A stretch of DNA of 24,000 bases from Corynebacterium maris DSM 45190 (GCF_000442645.1 NC_021915.1:855799-879798); one strand, 5' to 3'; shown: positions 3,716-17,170, counted from the stretch's first letter. Numbers and translations are program-made. The notes: generated from the letters alone by a model not told the origin.

Positions 3716-4357
3716 GTGAGCAACCAGCCGCCGATCCCGGATAACCCGTGGGCCACGCAGAGGGAACCTGCGTCGGGGCCCACGGGCAGCACCGGAGTCA
3801 TCGTCGTGGTCACGATCCTGGCGACGGTCGTGGTCATCCTCGCGGCCTTCGCCGCCTACCTCATCTTCGGCCGCGGCGGCGGCACAGAGACGAGGGCGGC
3901 GGAAACTTCCGCGACGAGCGCCCCGCCCGCAGTGGTGGAGACGGTCGTGGAAACGGTGGAGGAGACGGTCACCGCCGCCCCGGCGACCACGGCCCCCACC
4001 ACCACGTCGAGCACGACCTCCCCGGCGCCGGAGGTGGCCGGCCTGACCGCCCGCGGCTGGACCGCGAGCCCGGTCACCCGGTGCGGGGGAGGGGAGAGCG
4101 TCAGGTACGCGGCCCGGGACGGGGCGGGCTCCTACATCACCGTCTGCTCGTCGGGTAACTCGATGACGTACCGCTCCGACATCTTCGGGGGCACCCTCGA
4201 AATGCCCGTCGACGCCGGCGCCTCCGCACCGTCGCAGGGGTATTTCAGTGTGCCGGCCGGACAGCACCGCATCGTCATCGACGGTGATCGGCTCGAAGTG
4301 CGGGAGGGATCCAGCGTGGTCAACAGCGCCGACTTCGCCTTCTTCTACGTGATGTAG
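3716..4357 (+). CDS. Hypothetical membrane-anchored extracytoplasmic protein with an N-in TM helix, a Thr/Pro/Ala-rich linker and a two-Cys C-terminal domain
   Basis: GTG 3716 is preceded by gaaggag at about 7 nt spacing. Third positions are very G/C-rich. The TM segment is VIVVVTILATVVVILAAFAAYLIF, the linker is ...VVETVVETVEETVTAAPATTAPTTTSSTTSPAPE, and a roughly 110-aa domain with 2 Cys follows. I recognise no family. Confidence 0.7.
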   Translation: MSNQPPIPDNPWATQREPASGPTGSTGVIVVVTILATVVVILAAFAAYLIFGRGGGTETRAAETSATSAPPAVVETVVETVEETVTAAPATTAPTTTSSTTSPAPEVAGLTARGWTASPVTRCGGGESVRYAARDGAGSYITVCSSGNSMTYRSDIFGGTLEMPVDAGASAPSQGYFSVPAGQHRIVIDGDRLEVREGSSVVNSADFAFFYVM

Positions 4358-4409: not shown

Positions 4410-4483
4410 CATGAACGACTCTAGCCGATGTCACTAGAGGACAGCGGCAAAGTCATTTGCGCTGTTGCGTCCTCACAACCGAC

Positions 4484-4741
4484 TTAGCGGGTGGTGAACG
4501 GCAGGAGAGCCATTTCGCGGGCGTTCTTCACGGCAGTAGCGACCTGGCGCTGCTGCTGCGGGGTCAGACCGGTGACGCGACGCGAGCGGATCTTGTGACG
4601 ATCAGAGATGAACAGACGAAGGGTCTTGATGTCCTTGTAGTCCACCTTCTCAATGCCTTCGGCCTTGAGCGGGTTCTTCTTCGGGCGACGGGACTGCTCG
4701 ATCCGTGCCTTCTTGTGGTTGGTGCGCTTCATCTTTGCCAC
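4484..4741 (-). CDS. rpsR: 30S ribosomal protein S18, cysteine-free form
   Basis: The product [11 protein letters not shown]...[51 protein letters not shown] is unmistakably S18. It contains no Cys. Confidence 0.95.
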
Positions 4742-4744
4742 TCC

Positions 4745-5050
4745 TTACCAGCTGGACTTACGAACGCCGGGAAGCTCACCGCGGTGAGCCATCTCGCGCA
4801 TGCGGACACGGGACAGACCGAACTTGCGGAGGTAACCGCGGGGACGACCGTCGTGGGCGTCACGGTTACGGACGCGCACCGGGGAGGCGTCGCGCGGCTG
4901 ACGGTTCAGCTCGAACTGCGCGTCCAAGCGGTCTTCGTCAGAGGTGTTCGGGTTCTTGATGATGTTCTTGAGCTCAGCGCGACGCTCCGCATAGCGGGCG
5001 ACGATTTCCTTGCGCTGCTCGTTCTTAGCGATCTTGGATTTCTTCGCCAT
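4745..5050 (-). CDS. rpsN: 30S ribosomal protein S14, long 101-aa cysteine-free form
   Basis: The product [28 protein letters not shown]...[24 protein letters not shown] is S14. It contains no Cys. A 3-nt gap separates it from rpsR. Confidence 0.95.
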
Positions 5051-5052
5051 AC

Positions 5053-5217
5053 TTATCGCTCCTCACGGAATTCGACGTGCTTGCGGACGACCGGGTCGTA
5101 CTTCTTCATGGAGATACGGTCCGGGTTGTTGCGCTTGTTCTTACGGGTGACATAGGTGTAACCGGTGCCAGCCGTGGACTTGAGCTTGATGATGGGGCGA
5201 ATGTCATTACGTGCCAT
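5053..5217 (-). CDS. rpmG: 50S ribosomal protein L33, cysteine-free form (54 aa; absent from the ORF track because of its size)
   Basis: Hand translation of the minus strand from ATG (5217-5215) to TAA (5055-5053) gives [54 protein letters not shown]. This is an L33 signature without CxxC pairs. Gaps of 2 nt separate it from both neighbours. Confidence 0.9.
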
Positions 5218-5219
5218 GC

Positions 5220-5456
5220 TTAAATCTTCTCCCCACGTGCTCGGATCTTGGCGACGACAGACTCGATGCCGTCGCGGTCGATGACCTTCATGCCCTTGGT
5301 GGACACGGTCAGAGTAACGGTGCGCCCCTCAGAGGGCAGGTAGTACCGACGACGCTGCACGTTGGGGTTCCAACGACGCGAGTGGCGGCGGTGCGAGTGC
5401 GAGACGGTCTTGCCGAACTTCGGCGAGCGTCCCGTGACCTGGCAAATAGCCGACAT
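5220..5456 (-). CDS. rpmB: 50S ribosomal protein L28
   Basis: The product [39 protein letters not shown]... is L28. It has one Cys and no CxxC pair. It is the first gene of the rpmB-rpmG-rpsN-rpsR operon. Confidence 0.95.
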
Positions 5457-5830
5457 GGTGCTTCTTTCTCCTTGCCGCCCACATCACGGCTACAAAGTGC
5501 GGAAACACTAAAGGCGGCGCCGCGCCGTCCAAGCCAGTGGCCAGGTCGGGGCGCTGCCGGAATAGCCGGCTGACGGGGCGTAAACGATTACTTTCGACAA
5601 CAGCAAGGGTCAACCCTACCGGTGGAGAGCGAAAAAACCTAATCCCCTCTATGGTTAAGTGATTTCTGGATTCGTCGCCCCCTCTGTATGATTGTCTGAG
5701 CTGTCGCCGACGCGCGTCTTGCGTGCGTCCGGCGCTGATGACCATCTATCGAAACCCAACTCAGGCACGATCCTCGGCGAGCTCGCGCGGGGAACCGACC
5801 TGAAGTTCAATCCTGAGGGACACGATTTTC
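5457..5830. promoter_or_regulatory. Divergent 374-bp promoter and 5' leader region between rpmB (-) and rpmE2 (+)
   Basis: The spacer is unusually long for this compact region. The candidate minus-strand promoter has -35 TTGACC (5613-5608), a 17-nt spacer and -10 TAATCG (5590-5585). The candidate plus-strand -10 is TATGAT (5687-5692). Hairpins lie at 5706-5733 and 5852-5869. All promoter calls are by eye and weak. Confidence 0.35.
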
Positions 5831-6103
5831 ATGAAGAACGACATCCACCCGGACTACCACCCGGTAGTCTTCCAGGATGCGGGCACGGGCTTCCAGTTCC
5901 TGACCCGCTCCACCGCCACGTCGGACCGCACGGTCGAGTTTGAGGGCAACGAATACCCGCTGATCGTCGTTGACGTCACCAGCGAGTCCCACCCGTTCTG
6001 GACCGGCGCCCAGCGCGTCATGGACACGGCCGGCCGCGTCGAGAAGTTCCAGAAGCGCTTCGGTGGCATGGCCCGCCGCAAGAAGAAGACCGACAACAAC
6101 TAA
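5831..6103 (+). CDS. rpmE2: 50S ribosomal protein L31, type B (cysteine-free)
   Basis: The product is [28 protein letters not shown]...HPFWTG...[10 protein letters not shown]. It has the L31 N-terminal signature, contains no Cys, and its 90-aa length is typical of type B. Confidence 0.9.
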
Positions 6104-6124
6104 CCCAAGGAGGGAAAACAGACC

Positions 6125-6298
6125 ATGGCAACTCCCAAGTTCAAGAAGTCCCGCGCCAACACGCGCATGCGTCGTTCACAGTGGAAGGCCGACAACGTCG
6201 CCCTCCAGGAGGTCACCGTCGACGGTCAGACCGTGCGCATCCCGCGCCGTCTGGTCAAGGCCGCCAAGCTCGGCCTCGTCGACGTCGAGCAGTTCTAG
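6125..6298 (+). CDS. rpmF: 50S ribosomal protein L32, cysteine-free (57 aa; absent from the ORF track)
   Basis: Hand translation from ATG 6125 to TAG 6296-6298 gives [57 protein letters not shown]. The L32 N-terminal motif (PK.K.SR..T..RR..WK) is present. A ggaggg Shine-Dalgarno sequence lies upstream. In M. tuberculosis rpmF also precedes mprA (recalled). Confidence 0.85.
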
Positions 6299-9468: not shown

Positions 9469-9521
9469 CGTTAGCGACTAGATTCATTCCCATAACAGGG
9501 AACTTAAGTTTGAGGAGAAAC

Positions 9522-10103
9522 ATGGACACGATCCCCGTCGCTCGCGAAGCATCCGACGAGCTGAACGACATCGTCGAGCCCAATGACGAGTTTCTGCGGG
9601 CCACTGAGGAAGCGGAGGACATGCCGGCCCGTCGGCGGGCGTTGGTCGTGTTGGTCAGCGACCACCACAACGGCGCTGAGGACGACACCGACCGCCTGAT
9701 GACGGAGCTGCTCATCGAATGCGGTTTCCAGGTCGACGCGGTCGTCCGCGTCAAGTCGAAGAAGAGCGAGATCCGCCAGGCCATCGAGACCGCCGTGGTG
9801 GGCGGCGTCGACCTGGTGCTGACGGTGGGGGGCACTGGCGTCGGTCCGCGCGACCGCACCCCGGACGCCACCCTGACCGTCCTGGACCAGGAGGTTCCGG
9901 GCATCGCGCAGGCGCTGCGGGATTCCGGGCAGGCGTGCGGCGCCGTGGACGCGGTGGTCTCCCGCGGCGTGTCCGGCGTCTCCGGTTCGACGGTCATCGT
10001 CAACCTCGCCTCGTCGCGGGCCGCGATCCGGGACGGCATGGCGGCGCTTCCCCCGCTGGTGCACCACGTGGTCGATGAGCTGCAGACCTACAGCGTGCAC
10101 TGA
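9522..10103 (+). CDS. moaB2: MoaB/MogA-family molybdopterin-binding-fold protein, MoaB2-like, with a roughly 45-aa acidic N-terminal extension
   Basis: The gaggag Shine-Dalgarno sequence lies 4 nt before ATG 9522; the track start TTG 9510 is less likely. The core reads RRALVVLVSD...DLVLTVGGTGVGPRDRTPDAT, carrying the GGTG..RD motif of the MogA/MoaB fold. Its position after pepD matches Rv0984. Confidence 0.8.
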   Translation: MDTIPVAREASDELNDIVEPNDEFLRATEEAEDMPARRRALVVLVSDHHNGAEDDTDRLMTELLIECGFQVDAVVRVKSKKSEIRQAIETAVVGGVDLVLTVGGTGVGPRDRTPDATLTVLDQEVPGIAQALRDSGQACGAVDAVVSRGVSGVSGSTVIVNLASSRAAIRDGMAALPPLVHHVVDELQTYSVH

Positions 10104-10105
10104 TC

Positions 10106-10333
10106 ATGTCTGACCCACAGCACAGCCCGCGCCGCAAAGACCGCCGCCGGGTCCGCCGTCCCAGCGCGGCGGAGCACATCGACCGCAGCGCGGATACCCC
10201 GCGGCACGGTTTCGCCGACGACCTGGTCTCCGATGACGCCGAACGTCCCGTGCCCGTCGAGGACAGTCAGACAGACGACCCGGCGGGCGAGGAATTCTTG
10301 CGGGAGCAGCGCCCTCCTCACTACGGGGAGTGA
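10106..10333 (+). CDS. Small 75-aa highly charged, probably disordered protein of unknown function, coupled to moaB2
   Basis: ATG 10106 lies 2 nt after the moaB2 stop. Third positions are G/C-rich throughout. There is no TM segment and no Cys. The product ends ...EEFLREQRPPHYGE. I recognise no family. Confidence 0.5.
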   Translation: MSDPQHSPRRKDRRRVRRPSAAEHIDRSADTPRHGFADDLVSDDAERPVPVEDSQTDDPAGEEFLREQRPPHYGE

Positions 10334-11508: not shown

Positions 11509-12111
11509 CTACACGCGGTGGAGCGCTTCGGCCGTGACGATGACGTTGACGGGCATGTCATGGGCTTCGACGGGGACGTCGTGGGTGACCTCGTGATCGA
11601 AAAGAACGACGGCCAGCAACGGCTGCGGGGCTTCAGCCTCCGCCAGGCGGGCCAGCGTGCGGTCGTAGTAGCCGGCGCCTTTGCCCAACCGGAAACCCCG
11701 GCGGTTGGCGCCCAGGGCGGGCAGAAAGACGATGTCGCAGTCCAGCAGGGCCCGCCAGTCCCGGCGTTCGCCGACGGGTTCGGGGATGTTTAAATCTCCC
11801 TTGGCCATGGCTTCCTCCCCCTCGTAGGGGGCCCACAGCATGGCGCCTTCGGCCTCGGAAATCGGCAACAGGACAGCACCCGTGGCCGCGCGGAGGGCGG
11901 GAAGGAAACCCGGGCCGCCGGGCTCGTCGGGAAGCGGGTGGTACGCGGCGACGGTGCCGGCGGAACGTTCGTGGATCAGCTCCACGCACCGAGCGATCAG
12001 AGCCGTGTGCTGCCGCTCCCGAGTGGTTTTATCGAGCTCTTGCCGCGCCTGCTTGAGGGTGCTGCGCAAGACGCGTTTTGTGCCGCCGGGGTCGCTGATG
12101 TCCATGCTCAT
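11509..12111 (-). CDS. 5-formyltetrahydrofolate cyclo-ligase (MTHFS)
   Basis: A roughly 200-aa protein containing ...KRVLRSTLKQARQ...AAYHPLPDEP...DIVFLPALGANRRGFRLGKGAGYYDRTL.... The G.G.GYYDR motif is characteristic of this family. It lies divergent from galU, as does Rv0992c. Confidence 0.8.
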   Translation of the reverse strand: MSMDISDPGGTKRVLRSTLKQARQELDKTTRERQHTALIARCVELIHERSAGTVAAYHPLPDEPGGPGFLPALRAATGAVLLPISEAEGAMLWAPYEGEEAMAKGDLNIPEPVGERRDWRALLDCDIVFLPALGANRRGFRLGKGAGYYDRTLARLAEAEAPQPLLAVVLFDHEVTHDVPVEAHDMPVNVIVTAEALHRV

Positions 12112-12205
12112 GGCCCTCAGCCTAGCTTCGCGGGGAGAAAAACACGTGTGAATGCGGCCGGGTCTTTGTCAATCACGGCGCCACAGAGAAGGTAAGGTCT
12201 CGGGC

Positions 12206-13162
12206 ATGGTTGAGACGAATGACTTTCACCCCAACGGTGTGCGGACGGTCGTTGTGCCGGCCGCGGGTATGGGGACCCGGTTCCTGCCGGCGACGAAGAC
12301 GGTGCCGAAGGAACTGCTGCCGGTGGTGGACACTCCGGGCATCGAATTGATCGCGGAGGAGGCGTCGGCGTTGGGGGCGTCGCGTCTGGCGGTGATCACC
12401 GCTCCGTCCAAGGATGAGGTCTTGGCGCACTTCGGTGAGTTCCCGGGCCTGGTGGAAACGCTGGAGGCTCGCGGCAAGGATGAGCAGGTGGCCAAGGTCA
12501 AGCGTGCCTCTGCATTGATTCAGCCGGTCGCGGTGGAGCAGGAGCGGCCGCTGGGGCTGGGGCATGCGGTCGGGCTGGCCGAGGACGCGCTCGATGAAGA
12601 TGAGGACGCGTTCGCCGTGATGCTGCCGGATGATCTGGTCTTGCCTGAGAATGGGCGGCCGGGTGTGCTGGAGTTGATGTGCCGGGTGCGTGAGCAATTC
12701 GGCGGCAGTGTGTTGTGTGCGTTCGAGGTCGAACGCGATGAGGTGTTCAACTACGGGGTCTTCGACGTCGAGGAGATTGACGGGGCGTCCGGGTTGCCGG
12801 GTGAGTTGGTCAAGTCGGTGGCCGGGATGGTGGAGAAGCCGGATCCGGCGGCGGCGCCGTCGACGTTGGTGGCCGCGGGACGGTATTTGTTGGATCGGGC
12901 GGTGTTTGATGCGTTGCGCCGGATCACCCCGGGCAAGGGCGGTGAGCTGCAGCTGACGGATGCGATTGAGCTGATGATTCAGGAGGGGCATCCGGTGCAC
13001 GTGGTGGTGCACACGGGCAAGCGCCATGACCTGGGGAATCCGGCGGGATACATCCCGGCGAACGTGGACTTTGGTCTGCATCATCCGAAGTACGGCCCGG
13101 CGTTGTATCGCGCGATCAAGCAGGTCATCGCCGACTTCGAGGCGGAGCAGGCACAAAGCTAA
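12206..13162 (+). CDS. galU: UTP--glucose-1-phosphate uridylyltransferase
   Basis: From ATG 12206 the product reads MVETN...VVPAAGMGTRFLPATKTVPKELLPVVD...LGLGHAV...MLPDDL.... This is the GalU signature. The track start at 12152 has no Shine-Dalgarno sequence, whereas gaaggtaagg precedes 12206. Confidence 0.9.
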   Translation: MVETNDFHPNGVRTVVVPAAGMGTRFLPATKTVPKELLPVVDTPGIELIAEEASALGASRLAVITAPSKDEVLAHFGEFPGLVETLEARGKDEQVAKVKRASALIQPVAVEQERPLGLGHAVGLAEDALDEDEDAFAVMLPDDLVLPENGRPGVLELMCRVREQFGGSVLCAFEVERDEVFNYGVFDVEEIDGASGLPGELVKSVAGMVEKPDPAAAPSTLVAAGRYLLDRAVFDALRRITPGKGGELQLTDAIELMIQEGHPVHVVVHTGKRHDLGNPAGYIPANVDFGLHHPKYGPALYRAIKQVIADFEAEQAQS

Positions 13163-13243
13163 GTGTCATAACGCTGCCGGACACGGCCGCGGCGGTAGGC
13201 TGACGGAGATGACATCCGGGCCGGCACAACAGGAGGTAACCAC

Positions 13244-14509
13244 GTGCGCTCCGTGGAAGAACAGTTGGCGATCGTCACCGACGCCGCGGTCACCCCTGAG
13301 CCCGTCCGTACGTCGATCACCGACGCGCTCGGACTGATGAGTGCCGAGGAAGTCCAGGCGAGCACCCCGCTGCCGGCCTTTCCACAGGCCGCCATCGACG
13401 GCTACGCGGTACGCGCCGTCGACGTCGGCGGCGAACGCGCCCTGAGCGCCGTCACCGGCCCCGACCGGCCCGCCGCGGCGCACTCCCTGCCCGTCGTGGG
13501 GGAGGTGCCCGCCGGGTCCCGTCAACGCATTCGCCTGCAGCCGCAACAGGCGGTGCGCGTCCACACCGGCGCCCCGCTGCCCACGCTGGCCGACGCCGTG
13601 CTGCCTCTCGAATGGTCCGACCGCGGACGCAAGCGCGTGACCCCGCTGCAGCCGGTGCGCTCCGGGGACTTCATGCGCCGCCGCGGCGACGACATCCAGC
13701 CCGGCGACGTCGCCGTCACCGCCGGCACCGTCCTGGGGCCGGCGCAGATTGGGCTGCTCGCCGCCGTGGGGCGCACCAAAGTGCTCGTGTACCCGACGCC
13801 ACGGGTCAGCGTCTTCAGCTTTGGCGCCGAACTGATCGACATCGACCGAGAGCCCGGCCCCGGGCAGGTCTACGACGTCGCCTCTTACGCCTTGGCAGCA
13901 GCGGCCAAGGAGGCCGGCGCCCAGGTCAGCCGGGTCGGTCTCCTCGATGGCGAACCCCGCCGCCTCCGACAGACCATCGAAGCTCAGCTGCAACGCAGCG
14001 AAATGCTCGTCATTTCCGGCGCGGTCGGCGGTTCCGGCTCGGACCTGATCCGGTCGGTGCTCACCGAGATCGGTGAGATCGACACCACCCGGGTGGCCAT
14101 GCACCCCGGTTCCGTGCAGGGATTCGGGCTGCTGGGCGAGGAGCGCATCCCGGTGTTTCTGCTGCCGAGCAACCCGGTCTCCGCCCTGGCGGCCTTTGAA
14201 GTGTTCGTCCGTCCCGTGCTGCGATTGTCGTTGGGCAAGCGTTCCGCCAACCGCCGGGTGGTCCGCGCCCGAGCCCTCAACCACGTCACCTCGACCCCCG
14301 GCCGCCGTGGTTACGTCCGTGCCCAGCTCATGCGCGACGCCCATTCCCAGGATTACCTGGTCGAAGGCCTCGGTGGCGCGACGGGCGCACCGGCGCATCT
14401 GCTGGCCGGTCTGGCGGAGGCCAACGCCATGATCCGCATCCCCGAAGAGGTCACGGAAATCCGTCCCGGTGACGTGGTCGACGTGCTCTTCTTGGCGCAG
14501 CGATCTTGA
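13244..14509 (+). CDS. glp: MoeA-fold (gephyrin E-domain-like) protein, the probable orthologue of the corynebacterial divisome protein Glp
   Basis: The aggagg Shine-Dalgarno sequence precedes GTG 13244. MoeA hallmarks include ...PLPAFPQAAIDGYAVRAVDV..., ...PGQVYDVASYALAAAAKEAGA... and ...LPSNPVSALAAFEVFVRPVL.... The MoeA fold is high confidence. The Glp assignment rests on the galU-moeA-rimJ-membrane protein context and has moderate confidence. Confidence 0.8.
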   Translation: MRSVEEQLAIVTDAAVTPEPVRTSITDALGLMSAEEVQASTPLPAFPQAAIDGYAVRAVDVGGERALSAVTGPDRPAAAHSLPVVGEVPAGSRQRIRLQPQQAVRVHTGAPLPTLADAVLPLEWSDRGRKRVTPLQPVRSGDFMRRRGDDIQPGDVAVTAGTVLGPAQIGLLAAVGRTKVLVYPTPRVSVFSFGAELIDIDREPGPGQVYDVASYALAAAAKEAGAQVSRVGLLDGEPRRLRQTIEAQLQRSEMLVISGAVGGSGSDLIRSVLTEIGEIDTTRVAMHPGSVQGFGLLGEERIPVFLLPSNPVSALAAFEVFVRPVLRLSLGKRSANRRVVRARALNHVTSTPGRRGYVRAQLMRDAHSQDYLVEGLGGATGAPAHLLAGLAEANAMIRIPEEVTEIRPGDVVDVLFLAQRS

Positions 14510-15219
14510 CGGGGGGTCTGACTGTGCTCATGGATCCCTTCGGACTCGCGGCCGCCCGCTTCGACAAGCCCGCCACCGGCCCCCGCGACCCGGTGCACCC
14601 GGGGTGGCCGGAATCCACCCCGACCGTGCGGTTGACCACCGGTGAAAAAATGCGGTTACGCCCGCTGACCAACCGCGACGGCGCAGACTGGGCCGAGATC
14701 CGCCTCCTGGACGAACAGTGGCTGCGCCCCGTGGAACCCACCACCGCCGACACCTGGCAGGAAGCACATTCCTCCACTTCCTGGCGCAACACCTTCTCCT
14801 ACCTGCGAGGATTGGCGTCGCGTGGCGTCGCGATCCCGCTGGTCATCGAGATCGACGGCGCATTCGCCGGGCAGACGACCATCGGCAACATCCAGCACGG
14901 AGCCGTCTCGGAGGCGTGGATCGGCTACTGGGTGCATTCGGCCCACATGGGGAAGGGGGTGGCCACCGCGGCGTGCGCGCTGGGCACCGACCACGCTTTC
15001 TCCCGCATCGGGCTGCACCGGGTGACCGCCACCTACCTGCCGTCGAACCCTGCGTCGGGGAAAGTGCTGGTGACGGCCGGATTCAGGGAAGAAGGCCTCC
15101 TGCGCCGGAACCTGCACATCGACGGCGAATGGCGGGACCATCACTTCGTCGCGCAGAACGCGGAGGACCACCCGGACACGTGCGTTGCGCGTCTGCGCCG
15201 GGCCGGTCGGCTACTCTAG
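14506..15219 (+). CDS. rimJ: GNAT-family N-acetyltransferase, RimJ-like (ribosomal-protein-alanine acetyltransferase family)
   Basis: The product contains ...LRPLTNRDGADWAEIR...IEIDGAFAGQTTIGNI...GYWVHSAHMGKGVATAA...GLHRVTATYLPSNPASGKVLVTAGFREEGLLRRNLHIDGEWRDHH, typical of RimJ/RimL-type GNATs. TTG 14506 overlaps the moeA-like stop. The alternative starts GTG 14524 and ATG 14530 cannot be excluded. Confidence 0.75.
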   Translation: MTGGLTVLMDPFGLAAARFDKPATGPRDPVHPGWPESTPTVRLTTGEKMRLRPLTNRDGADWAEIRLLDEQWLRPVEPTTADTWQEAHSSTSWRNTFSYLRGLASRGVAIPLVIEIDGAFAGQTTIGNIQHGAVSEAWIGYWVHSAHMGKGVATAACALGTDHAFSRIGLHRVTATYLPSNPASGKVLVTAGFREEGLLRRNLHIDGEWRDHHFVAQNAEDHPDTCVARLRRAGRLL

Positions 15220-15318
15220 GTCACAATGCACGGCGTGGCAGGCCAGGCGTGCCTGGCCAGCGAATTACGCTTGTTGTGACCGACTGGTTCTCGAACGACG
15301 AAAGGTAGGCGACGGGGT

Positions 15319-16428
15319 ATGTCCGATGGTTTGATGATCATCCTGGTCATCGTGGTGTGGCTCTTTGTCCTCGCACCGCTGCTGCTGCGTGGTCAGCGAC
15401 CGATCAACAAAACCGGCGAAGCTTTCGACGACACCCGCGTCGTCTATGAGGGCGGAAGCGGCGACATCCCCGCCCGCCGTCACCCCCGGGTGTTGCCGAA
15501 AGACGTCCGCTCCCGCGCCGACGAAGACGAGGAAGATTATGAACTCGTCGAGGCGCTCGCCGAGGAGGACGCCGACGTCCTCATCGACGAGCGCCGTGCT
15601 CCGCTGATCGAAGATCCGGTGGAAGAGCCCGTCGTCGAAGAACGACGTGAGGAGATCGTCGACGGCGAAGTGGTCGACGAGCCCGTGGCCGAACTTCCGC
15701 AGGGCGGATCCACCGCCTACTCCGCGCTGGAACAGGCCGAGGAGGTCACCGCACCCCTGGCAGACAGCGACGTCTATGAACACGATGACACGTACGTCAC
15801 CGCCGCAGACTATCTGCATCCCGCCACTCGGACGCTTGCGGAGCCCGCGCCGGTACCGGAGACCGCTGAGGTTGAACCTGCTCTTGTCGGCGACGCCGCT
15901 CACGAGGAGGACGAGGAGCTGCTCGTCGAGGACATCGACTTGACCGACGAGGACTTGGCTTTCGCCAAGCGCCGCGCCGGCCGTGGCGGATGGGATCCGG
16001 AGTCCGATCAGAGATACTCCGTCGACCGCTACCAGCGCCGCCGCCGCACTCTGGCGGGTCTGCTCGCCGCGGTGGCCGTGACCCTGGTGTTGAGCATCGT
16101 CGTCGGCGGGTGGGCATGGATCACGGTCCTGCTCACTGGCGCGTTGACCGCCGTCTACCTGGTCGCCCTGCGTAAGCAGGTGCAGGAGGAGAAGGCACTG
16201 CGCGCCCGCCGGATCCGGCAACTGCGGCGCGCCCGCATGGGGGTGCGCCGGGCTGACGACGCCGAGGGCGGCGTCCCCCGCGAACTGCGCCGGCCCGGGG
16301 CGGTGGTCGTGGAACTCGACGACGAAAGCCCGGACTTCGACTACCTCGGCGTCACCGAGGCGTCCTTTGAGCCGACGACGCTGCGCCCGGTGCGTGGCGG
16401 GAATTTCAACGGTCGTCGCGCCGGATAG
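15319..16428 (+). CDS. glpR: Three-TM membrane protein with a long acidic disordered cytoplasmic loop, the candidate Glp receptor (GlpR-like)
   Basis: The N-terminal TM segment is LMIILVIVVWLFVLAPLLL. A roughly 220-aa D/E/P/V-rich low-complexity segment follows. The TM hairpin is LAGLLAAVAVTLVLSIVVGGWAWITVLLTGALTAVYLVAL, followed by a basic and then mixed tail of roughly 85 aa. The architecture and its position downstream of the moeA-like and rimJ genes fit GlpR as described for C. glutamicum. The assignment comes from context and architecture only. Confidence 0.6.
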   Translation: MSDGLMIILVIVVWLFVLAPLLLRGQRPINKTGEAFDDTRVVYEGGSGDIPARRHPRVLPKDVRSRADEDEEDYELVEALAEEDADVLIDERRAPLIEDPVEEPVVEERREEIVDGEVVDEPVAELPQGGSTAYSALEQAEEVTAPLADSDVYEHDDTYVTAADYLHPATRTLAEPAPVPETAEVEPALVGDAAHEEDEELLVEDIDLTDEDLAFAKRRAGRGGWDPESDQRYSVDRYQRRRRTLAGLLAAVAVTLVLSIVVGGWAWITVLLTGALTAVYLVALRKQVQEEKALRARRIRQLRRARMGVRRADDAEGGVPRELRRPGAVVVELDDESPDFDYLGVTEASFEPTTLRPVRGGNFNGRRAG

Positions 16429-16481
16429 GTTGAATATTTATGGTTGTCCGCCGGCCTGGTCGGTAAGTAAACTGACCAGTC

Positions 16482-16500
16482 AGCGGGGCAACCCCGCTTC
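16482..16500 (+). terminator. GC-rich hairpin after the glpR-like gene, abutting the tRNA 5' end (candidate terminator or tRNA 5'-leader structure)
   Basis: The hairpin is agcgggg caa ccccgct followed by tc, so the T-tail is very short. A second hairpin, ctggtcgg (16456-16463) / ctgaccag (16472-16479), lies just upstream. Confidence 0.35.
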
Positions 16501-16576
16501 GGGGGCGTAGCTCAGTTGGTAGAGCGTCGCGTTCGCAACGCGAAGGTCAGGGGTTCGATTCCCCTCGTCTCCACCA
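16501..16576 (+). tRNA. tRNA-Ala, anticodon CGC, with encoded CCA
   Basis: Hand-folded cloverleaf. The acceptor stem GGGGGCG/CGTCTCC includes the G3:U70 alanine identity pair. The D-arm is GCTC/GAGC with loop AGTTGGTA. The anticodon stem is TCGCG/CGCGA with loop TTCGCAA, giving anticodon CGC. The T-arm is AGGGG/CCCCT with loop TTCGATT. The discriminator is A73 and the 3' end is CCA. Confidence 0.95.
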
Positions 16577-17170
16577 CACTCCCGACGATCCGCGCCGGTG
16601 AGAGCCGATGAGATGGGTGTCCACGACGCCGATCGATTCCATGAGGGCGAACATCGTGGTCGGGCCGACGAACACGAAACCTTCCTTCTTCAGGGCCTGG
16701 GCCAGGGCGACGGATTCGGGGGAGGTGGTGGGCACCTCGGCCATGGTGCGTGGCTCCGGCGTCTCCTCCGGCTGGAAGGACCAGATGAAGTCGGCGAGGC
16801 CTGCCTTGTCCCGCAGTGCGACGGTGGCACGCGCGTTGGTGATCGCGGCGAGGATCTTCCGGCGGTTGCGGATGATGCGGGCGTCGGCAAGCAGTCTGTC
16901 GACGTCGGCGTCGTCGAATGCGGCGACGACCTCCGGGTCGAAGTCCGCGAAGGTCTCGCGGAAGGCCGGGCGTTTGCGCAGCACCGTCGCCCAGGACAGG
17001 CCAGACTGAAAGCCTTCGAGGGTGACGCGCTCGTAGAGCCCGTGCTCGTCGCGCACGGGCATGCCCCATTCGACGTCGTAGTAGTCGCGCAGCAGGTCGC
17101 TGGCCTCTGCCCAGGGCGGGCGGGCGAGCCCGTCGGCGCCGATGATCAATCCGTTTTCAGTGGTCTCCAT
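16547..17170 (-). CDS. tag: DNA-3-methyladenine glycosylase I (Tag family)
   Basis: The product contains ...[55 protein letters not shown]...IIRNRRKI...NAR...[21 protein letters not shown], which aligns by eye along E. coli Tag. The last 30 nt of the ORF, including the stop, are antisense to the tRNA-Ala 3' half. Confidence 0.85.

Follow-up and report, generated by a model that had tools for sequence, protein, structure and literature searches.

The MoeA-like gene at positions 13244..14509 of the 24-kb stretch of DNA analysed here (hereafter called the window) raised the question of whether it serves molybdenum cofactor (Moco) biosynthesis or cell division. An initial annotation had favoured cell division and had taken this gene, together with that of an acidic membrane protein close by, for the orthologues of Glp and GlpR; what it stated of the work on C. 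glutamicum matched Martinez et al. 2023 (PMC10522489). In C. glutamicum, Glp is a MoeA-fold homodimer kept open by two Pro-rich hinges, which gives a central groove where a domain-IV beta-hairpin and a hydrophobic pocket bind the FtsZ C-terminal peptide (PMC10522489). GlpR of the same species has three transmembrane (TM) segments as well as two disordered regions (IDRs), both cytoplasmic, and binds Glp with nanomolar affinity, needing the same Glp loop, and the N-terminal domain of Wag31 with micromolar affinity (PMC10522489). This work computed the orthology and signature residues of the pair, its topology and charge pattern, and its synteny; it is in C. glutamicum that partner binding was shown. 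Since identity, equivalog scores, signatures, topology and synteny agreed, the two genes were very probably clear orthologues of glp and glpR, forming a Glp-GlpR division pair as had been proposed.

Results

The MoeA-fold protein is assigned to the Glp clade

The glp gene (13244..14509, plus strand) starts with GTG and encodes a predicted gephyrin-like MoeA-fold divisome protein of 421 aa. The open reading frame and the MoeA fold described for it in the initial annotation were both recovered, as MoeA_N, MoCF_biosynth and MoeA_C were all detected above the Pfam cut-offs, corresponding to the four-domain MoeA fold. Its N-terminus, MRSVEEQL, aligned to residue 1 of the crystal construct of C. glutamicum Glp, and the full-length protein matched the structures of that protein (PDB 8BVE, apo; 8BVF, with the FtsZ C-terminal peptide) with an E-value of 3.8e-195. 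The identity over the full length was 73.6% to C. glutamicum Glp (Cgl0883) and 30% to E. coli MoeA, and the best Glp identity among the 80 loci returned was 77%.

The HMM comparison suggested along with the initial annotation separated the Glp family clearly from the enzymes. The equivalog model NF045515 Glp_gephyrin was passed with 564.7 bits (cut-off 475), and a SepX/GlpR model was likewise passed by the downstream protein, whereas both MoeA models failed on Glp: NF050098 MoeA_actino reached 329.6 bits against a cut-off of 560, and the E. coli-type model PRK10680 reached 250.3 bits against 440. With E-values of 9e-170 for Glp and 8e-77 for GlpR, the matches were far better than chance would give. 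By these scores the 13244-14509 protein falls in the Glp clade rather than in the enzyme MoeA clades.

Signature residues of Glp and the Moco enzyme alternative

The Pro-rich hinges that join domains I and III are a signature separating Glp from MoeA paralogues (Martinez et al. 2023, PMC10522489). Hinge 1 of the window protein, TPEPV (residues 17-21, 13292..13306, plus strand), aligned with APEPV of C. glutamicum and with a gap lacking prolines in E. coli MoeA. Hinge 2, YPTPR (residues 183-187, 13790..13804, plus strand), aligned with YPRPR of C. glutamicum and with IRKVR of E. coli MoeA. The FtsZ-binding beta-hairpin loop of C. glutamicum Glp is bounded by M361 and Y369 and is complemented by a hydrophobic pocket, the contacts being defined in PMC10522489. 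Its predicted counterpart in the window was LMRDAHSQDYL (residues 362-372, 14327..14359, plus strand), equivalent to L360-L370 of C. glutamicum, where L362, M363, R364, D365, A366, Y371 and L372 were the same in both proteins, and so were the pocket residues V340, L345 and F416. Only two non-contact residues of the loop differed, E365 and T366 of C. glutamicum being replaced by H and S. None of the L, M, R, D and Y of the loop varied across 82 Glp sequences, 81 of which also kept the last L, whereas most of the loop and pocket positions differed in E. coli MoeA, which reads Q-R-N-A-D-G-E-L-E where Glp has M-R-D-A-x-x-x-D-Y-L. Thus all three sequence signatures by which Martinez et al. 2023 told Glp from MoeA were present in the window protein.

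The glycine-rich loop ISGAVGGSGSD was read in translation at residues 257-267 (14012..14044, plus strand), exactly as given in the initial annotation, which had noted its departure from SGGVSxG. The form xGAVGG was found in 76 of 82 Glp-clade sequences, and E. coli MoeA has SGGVSV instead of SGAVGG. By this alignment the seemingly odd loop is a trait of the whole Glp clade and not a peculiarity of the window.

Given the complete four-domain MoeA fold, the protein might also be, or might instead be, a working molybdopterin molybdotransferase that moonlights as gephyrin does, perhaps encoded by the sole moeA of the genome. Twelve positions of the active-site cleft of E. coli MoeA were compared, chosen from residues reportedly probed by mutagenesis by Nichols and colleagues in 2007. 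Nine of the twelve were identical in the window protein (D59, T100, R137, D142, E188, D259, P298, P301 and R350), which would be compatible with a retained activity, and Martinez et al. write of a 'putative active site' and report no loss of activity (PMC10522489). The other three positions were changed (D228 to G, K279 to a clade-invariant H, S371 to A). Against an activity, the changes were clade-wide at D228 (to G/A/T/S), at K279 and in the glycine loop (SGGVSxG to xGAVGG), and both curated cut-offs for MoeA enzymes were failed. In addition, C. glutamicum possesses two further MoeA paralogues, both cytoplasmic, and most actinobacterial genomes carry moeA in two or more copies (PMC10522489).

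The gene content of the window pointed in both directions. The statement that moaA/C/D/E, mobA and modABC were lacking proved literally true, as none was detected in the 24-kb window by domain search, but it had left out a MoCF_biosynth gene of the MoaB2 type, which lies 3.1 kb 5' of glp at 9510-10103. This gene could be counted in favour of Moco synthesis; however, E. coli MoaB plays no part in that pathway, and mycobacterial MoaB2 is given as a protein of unknown function (PMC11656743). On this balance, a molybdotransferase role was judged unlikely, and the Glp assignment was preferred.

Identity and architecture of GlpR

The glpR gene (15319..16428, plus strand) encodes a putative membrane receptor for Glp of 369 aa. 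For this assignment the protein was compared with curated HMMs, with homologues named by NCBI and with the architecture published for C. glutamicum GlpR (Cgl0885). The protein passed NCBIfam NF045516 SepX_GlpR_1 with 258.9 bits (cut-off 160), and Pfam PF28211 'GlpR' was precomputed on an identical public protein (P0001) and on the gene called on contigs L001-L004. Its homologues carried the NCBI name 'gephyrin-like molybdotransferase receptor GlpR', and the identity of the nearest named ones was just about 50%, as the IDRs diverge rapidly.

The layout given in the initial annotation, a 369-aa protein 99 nt past the GNAT gene with one N-terminal TM helix, an acidic loop of about 220 residues, a hairpin and a tail of about 85 residues, was reproduced. 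TM1 (residues 3-24, 15325..15390, plus strand) coincided with a hydropathy maximum of 3.21 and an AF2 helix at 3-24 (pLDDT 81-87), and its W14 and P20 were invariant or nearly so among orthologues. It was followed by the acidic, disordered and poorly conserved IDR1 (residues 25-214, 15391..15960, plus strand), with pLDDT mostly below 60. This feature ends at 214, where the juxtamembrane helix starts, and its charge was computed over the 220 residues 25-244, giving a pI of 4.19 with 28% D/E. The core (15961..16245, plus strand) comprised the juxtamembrane helix, the TM2-TM3 hairpin at 245-284 and, after TM3, a basic helix reaching residue 309, and was modelled by AF2 as helices 210-220, 227-262 and 266-307 (pLDDT 85-91), with R222, G223, D226, P227, R241, R243, R285, E291, R298 and R304 among its invariant residues. 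The C-terminal tail was 85 residues long, and the pI of IDR2 was 10.92. The modelled protein, with three TM segments and two oppositely charged IDRs whose cytoplasmic side is predicted, matches what has been published for GlpR, which in C. glutamicum has three TM segments, an IDR1 of pI 4.05 and an IDR2 of pI 10.87 (PMC10522489). The size differed, being 369 aa in the window and about 340 aa in C. glutamicum.

An acidic, low-complexity reading frame in a high-GC genome may arise by chance, and many long spurious frames occur in such DNA, several of them overlapping here on other frames. For glpR this origin was rejected as extremely improbable: 731 homologues were found at E <= 1e-3, including relatives of 86% and 65% identity on other contigs, 37 columns were invariant in 94 sequences, the curated HMM cut-off was exceeded and the AF2 helices were confident.

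A conserved linear motif was located in IDR2 (residues 320-343, 16276..16347, plus strand; PRELRRPGAVVVELDDESPDFDYL) from the identity profile of the columns. It was the most conserved 20-residue block of GlpR in 80 orthologues (identity 0.69), with the profile P-x-R-L-R-R-P-G-A-V-V-[LV]-E-[IVL]-D-D-E-[DS]-P-x-F-[DE]-[HY]-L, and its pLDDT was below 50 in the AF2 monomer model. This conservation suggests that the motif may have a function. The acidic P-x-F core of this disordered motif bears a loose likeness to the FtsZ tail.

Relationship of GlpR to SepX

The NCBI family name 'divisome protein SepX/GlpR' raised the possibility that the 369-aa protein acts mainly as SepX does, stabilising the Z-ring through the dynamin-like DynB, and not as a receptor of Glp. 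SepX of Streptomyces venezuelae (vnz_14865) likewise combines three TM segments with two cytoplasmic regions that are disordered, and it co-localises with FtsZ (PMC8748795). The models SepX_GlpR_2-4 matched the window protein over the TM-hairpin core with E-values of 1e-11 to 3e-18. These matches were confined to the TM core and stayed below the cut-offs, at no more than 66 bits, whereas SepX_GlpR_1 was by far the best model. Moreover, SepX differs from GlpR in its partner, DynB rather than a MoeA-like protein, and in its gene, which is reported not to lie near known divisome genes (PMC8748795), whereas glpR was linked to glp in all 71 loci with a long enough flank. Nanomolar Glp-GlpR binding in C. 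glutamicum, the closest model organism (PMC10522489), also spoke against a SepX-like role, as did the lack of dynA/dynB in the window. Such a role was therefore considered highly unlikely, and the receptor assignment was retained. Kinship of SepX and GlpR would be consistent with the joint NCBI name and the same architecture, with SepX homologues sharing less than 10% identical residues (PMC8748795); a paper stating a link between the two was not found in the literature searched.

Gene order and the start of the GNAT gene

Upstream of glp, galU (12152..13162, plus strand) was recognised by NTP_transferase and by TIGR01099 galU, the latter with 223.6 bits, under the cut-off of 326.8. The gene between glp and glpR encodes a RimJ-like GNAT acetyltransferase (14530..15219, plus strand; Pfam Acetyltransf_3), whose best NCBIfam match was S5-alanine N-acetyltransferase with 78 bits, also under the cut-off (190). 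This frame is open from TTG 14506, and the initial annotation had described an overlap of this codon with the glp stop. TTG 14506 and TGA 14507-14509 are indeed present, but the TTG is probably not the real start. On four identical metagenome contigs, gene callers placed the start 24 nt downstream, at ATG 14530, giving 229 aa, and 73 of 80 orthologue frames had no residue aligned to residue 1 of the longer GNAT form, conservation beginning near Met9. With the probable start at ATG 14530, glp and the GNAT gene would be separated by a gap of 20 nt instead of a 4-nt overlap.

The order galU-glp-GNAT-glpR was found in essentially all of 80 Mycobacteriales loci. Counting only loci with a long enough flank, galU was directly 5' of glp in 75/75 and the GNAT gene lay between glp and glpR in 77/79. 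In the window, the four genes were co-directional with intergenic gaps of 81, 20 and 99 nt, no terminator was predicted within the cluster, and they may be co-transcribed. Neither ftsZ nor wag31 was present in the window.

Discussion

The locus, which comes from a high-GC Corynebacterium, has the gene order of C. glutamicum, where glp-GNAT-glpR also follows galU, and the Glp hinges, FtsZ loop and pocket residues are shared; the two are different species, compared from their sequences. In the loci of Mycobacterium and other Mycobacteriales that were compared, galU-glp-GNAT-glpR was also kept, with htrA(pepD)-moaB2 upstream. Mycobacterial Glp proteins were about 59-62% identical to that of the window, and the likeness of the GlpR proteins lay mostly in TM1, the TM hairpin and the IDR2 motif. 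We take MoeA1/Rv0994-RimJ/Rv0995-Rv0996 to be the counterpart cluster of M. tuberculosis. Its context is displayed in Fig. 5a of PMC10522489.

E. coli MoeA (b0827) has the same four-domain fold but no Pro-rich hinges, forms a closed dimer and is encoded beside moeB. The E domain of eukaryotic gephyrin is a MoeA-fold dimer acting as a sub-membrane scaffold, and it matched the window Glp in the PDB with an E-value of about 3e-42. In gephyrin, which is an established Moco enzyme and serves glycine and GABA-A receptors, a MogA-like G domain is fused covalently. Like Glp, gephyrin binds a cytoplasmic peptide of its receptor on domain IV and is tied to a tubulin-family cytoskeleton, but the peptide-binding site on domain IV differs (PMC10522489), and there is no relation between the two in their receptors or in the biological process. 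As far as the comparison goes, the likeness is one of analogy and shared fold ancestry, not orthology of the systems.

That automated annotation would overlook this pair, as had been expected, holds for older pipelines: an older Pfam copy gave zero matches on GlpR, and several NCBI records of its homologues still read 'hypothetical protein'. Current NCBIfam/PGAP and Pfam (PF28211), however, name both proteins. Glp-GlpR is a published (2023), widely conserved system, so that its occurrence here is not new, and its mechanism was still cited as current in 2026.

By analogy with C. glutamicum, Glp in the organism of the window would form an open homodimer through its hinges, and its 362-372 hairpin and the pocket of V340, L345, L362, Y371 and F416 would bind the FtsZ C-terminal peptide, by which Glp would be brought to the early Z-ring. 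GlpR, a three-TM protein with cytoplasmic IDRs, would bind Glp at the same loop. Deleting glpR affects C. glutamicum only subtly (PMC10522489), which indicates a modest physiological weight of GlpR even there. Binding and localisation of this kind may likewise apply here, where Glp and GlpR together would anchor a scaffold associated with FtsZ at the septal membrane and may hold back Wag31 until cytokinesis is complete, so that cells would pass from division to polar elongation in a coordinated way.

Identification of Glp and GlpR

The gene at 13244-14509 (+) starts with GTG and encodes a 421-aa protein in which MoeA_N, MoCF_biosynth and MoeA_C domains were detected by Pfam. This protein scored 564.7 bits with the NCBIfam equivalog NF045515 "molybdotransferase-like divisome protein Glp" (cut-off 475) and fell below the cut-offs of both the actinobacterial MoeA model (329.6 vs 560) and the E. 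coli-type MoeA model (250.3 vs 440). The best solved structures were 8BVE/8BVF, matched end to end with an E value of 3.8e-195, which are the apo and FtsZ-peptide structures of C. glutamicum Glp (Martinez et al. 2023, PMC10522489). C. glutamicum Glp shared 73.6% identity with the protein and E. coli MoeA 30%, and the closest Glp proteins among species representatives, about 77% identical, were all from Corynebacterium (C. hylobatis, C. sp. zg-331, C. casei and others). Proteins identical to the window Glp and GlpR occur on metagenome contigs of at most 50 kb (Logan SRR31097905 and several ENA assemblies).

What sets Glp apart from MoeA paralogues is the FtsZ-binding loop together with a pair of Pro-rich hinges (PMC10522489). 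These regions were compared after aligning the window protein with C. glutamicum Glp, E. coli MoeA and 80 Glp orthologues drawn from genome loci. Hinge 1 was TPEPV in the window protein and APEPV in C. glutamicum Glp, where E. coli MoeA had a gap, and hinge 2 was YPTPR and YPRPR respectively, against IRKVR in E. coli MoeA. The FtsZ-binding loop read LMRDAHSQDYL in the window protein and LMRDAETQDYL in C. glutamicum Glp; its L, M, R, D and Y were invariant in 82/82 Glp sequences and its final L was found in 81/82. The pocket residues V340, L345 and F416 were kept as well. The proposal of the initial annotation that this MoeA-fold protein is a Glp orthologue was thus borne out by the equivalog model, the failed MoeA models, and the presence of hinges, loop and pocket.

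The unusual glycine-rich loop remarked on in the initial annotation was real, and was shared across the clade: xGAVGG was found in 76/82 Glp sequences, compared with SGGVSV in E. coli MoeA, so that on this alignment the loop marks the Glp clade and is no peculiarity of the window gene. Nine of 12 E. coli MoeA cleft positions, which we take to be those of Nichols et al. 2007, were retained in the window Glp. D228 of E. coli MoeA was replaced by G, and the commonest residues of the clade at this position were never acidic; K279 was replaced by H, invariant across the Glp clade, and S371 by A in the window protein. The replacements at D228 and K279, like the xGAVGG loop, are clade-wide markers which may bear on a possible loss of catalysis by Glp, for which "putative active site" is the only wording on catalysis in the C. 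glutamicum work (PMC10522489).

The glpR gene (15319-16428, +, ATG start, 369 aa) follows the GNAT/RimJ-like gene after a 99-nt spacer. Its product had no match in the local Pfam copy and scored 258.9 bits with NCBIfam NF045516 "divisome protein SepX/GlpR" (cut-off 160), and the newer Pfam family PF28211 "GlpR" was annotated on the identical protein in public data. Among 731 homologues found, all 120 listed carried PF28211, the named ones among those listed were Corynebacterium, and many of the 120 were named by NCBI as "gephyrin-like molybdotransferase receptor GlpR" or "divisome protein SepX/GlpR", while some legacy records among the matches listed were still "hypothetical protein". The concern that automated annotation would miss this system therefore applied to the local Pfam copy and legacy records, but not to current NCBIfam and Pfam, which name both proteins.

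Hydropathy and composition gave a GlpR layout of an N-terminal helix (residues 3-24), a 220-residue acidic region (IDR1), a TM hairpin (245-284) and an 85-residue tail. IDR1 contained 28% D/E, and its pI was 4.19, compared with 4.05 for published C. glutamicum GlpR; the second disordered region (IDR2) was basic in both proteins, with pI of 10.92 and 10.87 respectively, and three TM segments were common to the two (PMC10522489). AF2, run on an alignment of 94 sequences, predicted confident helices at TM1 (3-24) and at 210-307 (pLDDT 85-91), a stretch that takes in a juxtamembrane helix, the TM2 and TM3 helices and a basic helix, and it gave both IDRs low confidence. No solved GlpR structure was found by the solved-structure search, even at E <= 1. 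The homology suggested at the outset for this membrane protein was supported by the NF045516 score, by PF28211 and by the matching TM/IDR architecture.

The Streptomyces divisome membrane protein SepX, which co-localises with FtsZ, is built in the same way, from three TM segments and a pair of IDRs (Bush et al. 2022, PMC8748795). Three other SepX/GlpR models matched GlpR in the TM core region (E values from 1e-11 to 3e-18, all below their cut-offs), and NCBI unites the two under a joint name. No paper joining the names was found in the literature search. Given the same architecture, the merged name and the cross-model matches, GlpR is likely homologous to SepX.

Gene boundaries and gene order

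The high GC content of the window (59-71%) makes long spurious ORFs in other frames common. The glp, GNAT and glpR ORFs were all present where initially called and were genuine genes by homology; for GlpR, a chance ORF was ruled out by the 731 homologues, the curated HMM score above cut-off and the invariant alignment columns. The GNAT ORF (+) can be read from TTG 14506, a codon that shares bases with the glp stop TGA 14507-14509. Both codons were in the sequence as described, but the 4-nt overlap deduced from them is probably not real, because gene calls on four metagenome contigs with identical Glp placed the GNAT start 24 nt downstream, at window ATG 14530 (229 aa), and because in the alignment of 80 orthologue ORFs 73 had nothing opposite window residue 1, with conservation beginning at about Met9. 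A 20-nt gap between glp and the GNAT gene is more likely. A G-run at 14511-14516 precedes ATG 14530 and may be a ribosome-binding site.

No promoter-like site was detected in 12000-16700 by the promoter/terminator scan, and the sole terminator-like site there, a minus-strand site within glp, did not exceed chance expectation. The GNAT-glpR spacer carried a perfect GC-rich inverted repeat at 15238-15258 (+), GGCCAGGC-g-TGCCTGGCC. No T-run followed the repeat, and the scan did not score it as a terminator; upstream of glpR it may form an RNA structure or serve as a protein-binding site.

Synteny was examined at 80 loci (Corynebacterium, Nocardia, Rhodococcus, Mycobacterium, Dietzia, Lawsonella and others), counted where the flank sufficed. 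Immediately upstream of glp, galU was found in 75/75 loci, and a 5-FTHF cyclo-ligase gene was upstream in 74/75. The GNAT gene was immediately downstream in 77/79, and glpR was downstream in all 71 loci, as the third gene in 66 and with one inserted gene in 5. These counts agreed with the published co-localisation and co-occurrence of glp and glpR (PMC10522489). A Lawsonella clevelandensis MAG was the sole locus of the 80 without a detected GNAT homologue, and its glp and glpR were closer together, therefore the acetyltransferase is dispensable for glp-glpR linkage. Two loci labelled "Clostridia bacterium" and "uncultured Campylobacter sp." carried a Corynebacterium-like glp cluster with 68-72% Glp identity and full synteny, most likely resulting from binning contamination of public MAGs.

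MoaB2 and other neighbouring genes

Besides glp, a second MoCF_biosynth gene was located at 9510-10103 (+), of MoaB2 type with the MogA/gephyrin-G-domain fold, and its closest structures were mycobacterial MoaB2 3RFQ, 3TCR and 8BYR (E about 1e-47). The initial annotation had stated that moaA/C/D/E, mobA and modABC were absent from the window, and had omitted MoaB2 from its neighbours; no other molybdenum cofactor (Moco), mob or mod gene was found within the 24-kb window. MoaB2 and HtrA were each kept within 10 kb upstream of glp in 50/50 loci, and Cgl0877, the C. glutamicum gene at the position equivalent to that of MoaB2, appeared in one broad SepF pull-down list, which would suit a split gephyrin, with MoaB2 as the G domain that partners Glp. 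Such a partnership is nevertheless highly improbable: Cgl0877 was not in the core SepF interactome, its single occurrence in the whole interactome file was in the SepF list and not in the Glp interactome tables, moaB2 adjoins htrA rather than glp, lying directly downstream of the HtrA/PepD protease and a two-component system, and MoaB2 of M. smegmatis (8BYR) reportedly forms a hexamer that binds sigma-A and is otherwise of unknown function (PMC11656743).

Several smaller ORFs were observed upstream of glp. A highly charged 75-aa ORF at 10106-10333 (+), between moaB2 and mscL, was called on identical metagenome contigs and matched no Pfam or NCBIfam family. A 213-aa ORF at 3716-4357 (+), for which a single TM helix was predicted and whose linker is rich in Thr, Ser, Pro and Ala, had no significant family match, and its coding strand is uncertain because a 233-aa minus-strand ORF overlaps it. 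A cluster of ribosomal-protein paralogues occupied both strands of 4484-6298: S18 (4484-4741), S14 (4745-5050), L33 (5053-5217) and L28 (5220-5456) on the minus strand, and, divergent from these, L31 (5831-6103) and L32 (6125-6298) on the plus strand. By eye, they were without CxxC zinc-ribbon cysteines and thus look like zinc-independent "alternative" ribosomal proteins; the spacer 5457-5830 may hold a Zur-type control region, and a 232-aa ORF opposite the minus-strand genes (4457-5155, +) is probably spurious.

A conserved motif in IDR2 of GlpR

Conservation of GlpR across 80 Mycobacteriales orthologues peaked in IDR2 and not in the membrane region, with a mean identity of 0.69 at residues 321-340. 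The column profile defined a 24-residue linear motif at residues 320-343 (16276-16347, +) with the consensus P-x-R-L-R-R-P-G-A-V-V-[LV]-E-[IVL]-D-D-E-[DS]-P-x-F-[DE]-[HY]-L, in which P320, L323, R324, P326, E332, D335, P338, D339 and F340 were invariant in the Corynebacterium-rich 94-sequence alignment. The motif belongs to no TM helix or folded domain and was disordered in the AF2 model, as expected for a motif that may fold on its partner. No description of it was found in the literature consulted.

Discussion

With this pair, a further Corynebacterium carries the Glp/GlpR system as published, which is already known and ordinary for Mycobacteriales. Every testable sequence-level feature that defines the system was found, and none was absent. 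In C. glutamicum, Glp is the top SepF/FtsZ interactor and reaches mid-cell early, and the central groove of its open homodimer takes up the FtsZ C-terminal peptide with a Kd of 4.7 uM; deletion of glp results in elongated, multiseptate and ethambutol-sensitive cells (PMC10522489). The affinity of GlpR is 5.5 nM for Glp and 15-43 uM for the Wag31 N-terminal domain, deletion of the Glp loop abolishes the binding of both FtsZ and GlpR, and deletion of GlpR IDR2 partially phenocopies that of glp (PMC10522489). In the working model for that species, Glp-GlpR, retained by FtsZ, would restrain Wag31 at the septum until cytokinesis ends, and citations of the C. glutamicum mechanism in 2026 still treat it as current. 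On the grounds of orthology and conserved residues, we infer that the window Glp and GlpR would follow it.

The IDR2 motif has an acidic-P-x-F core loosely like the crystallised FtsZ peptide DDLDVPSFLQ, the occupant of the Glp groove, and the likeness is modest because the hydrophobic anchors L435 and V437 are out of register. Together with the loop-deletion and IDR2-deletion results, this likeness makes the motif a tentative candidate, at a little under even chances, for a Glp-binding determinant. That it would be the high-affinity determinant and mimic the FtsZ tail in the same groove is rather unlikely; if so, FtsZ and GlpR would compete for, or alternate in, the two sites of the Glp dimer. 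The motif could equally be a Wag31 site.

The window adds one more orthologous pair to a system conserved across Mycobacteriales and brings no conceptual change. Genes labelled "MoeA" and "hypothetical membrane protein" at this conserved location are to be read as divisome genes; up-to-date NCBIfam and Pfam name them as Glp and GlpR, and older releases and legacy records do not. Of interest, apart from this annotation lesson, is the IDR2 motif, the sole forward-looking element, which offers a precise and inexpensive target for locating where GlpR binds Glp (or Wag31).
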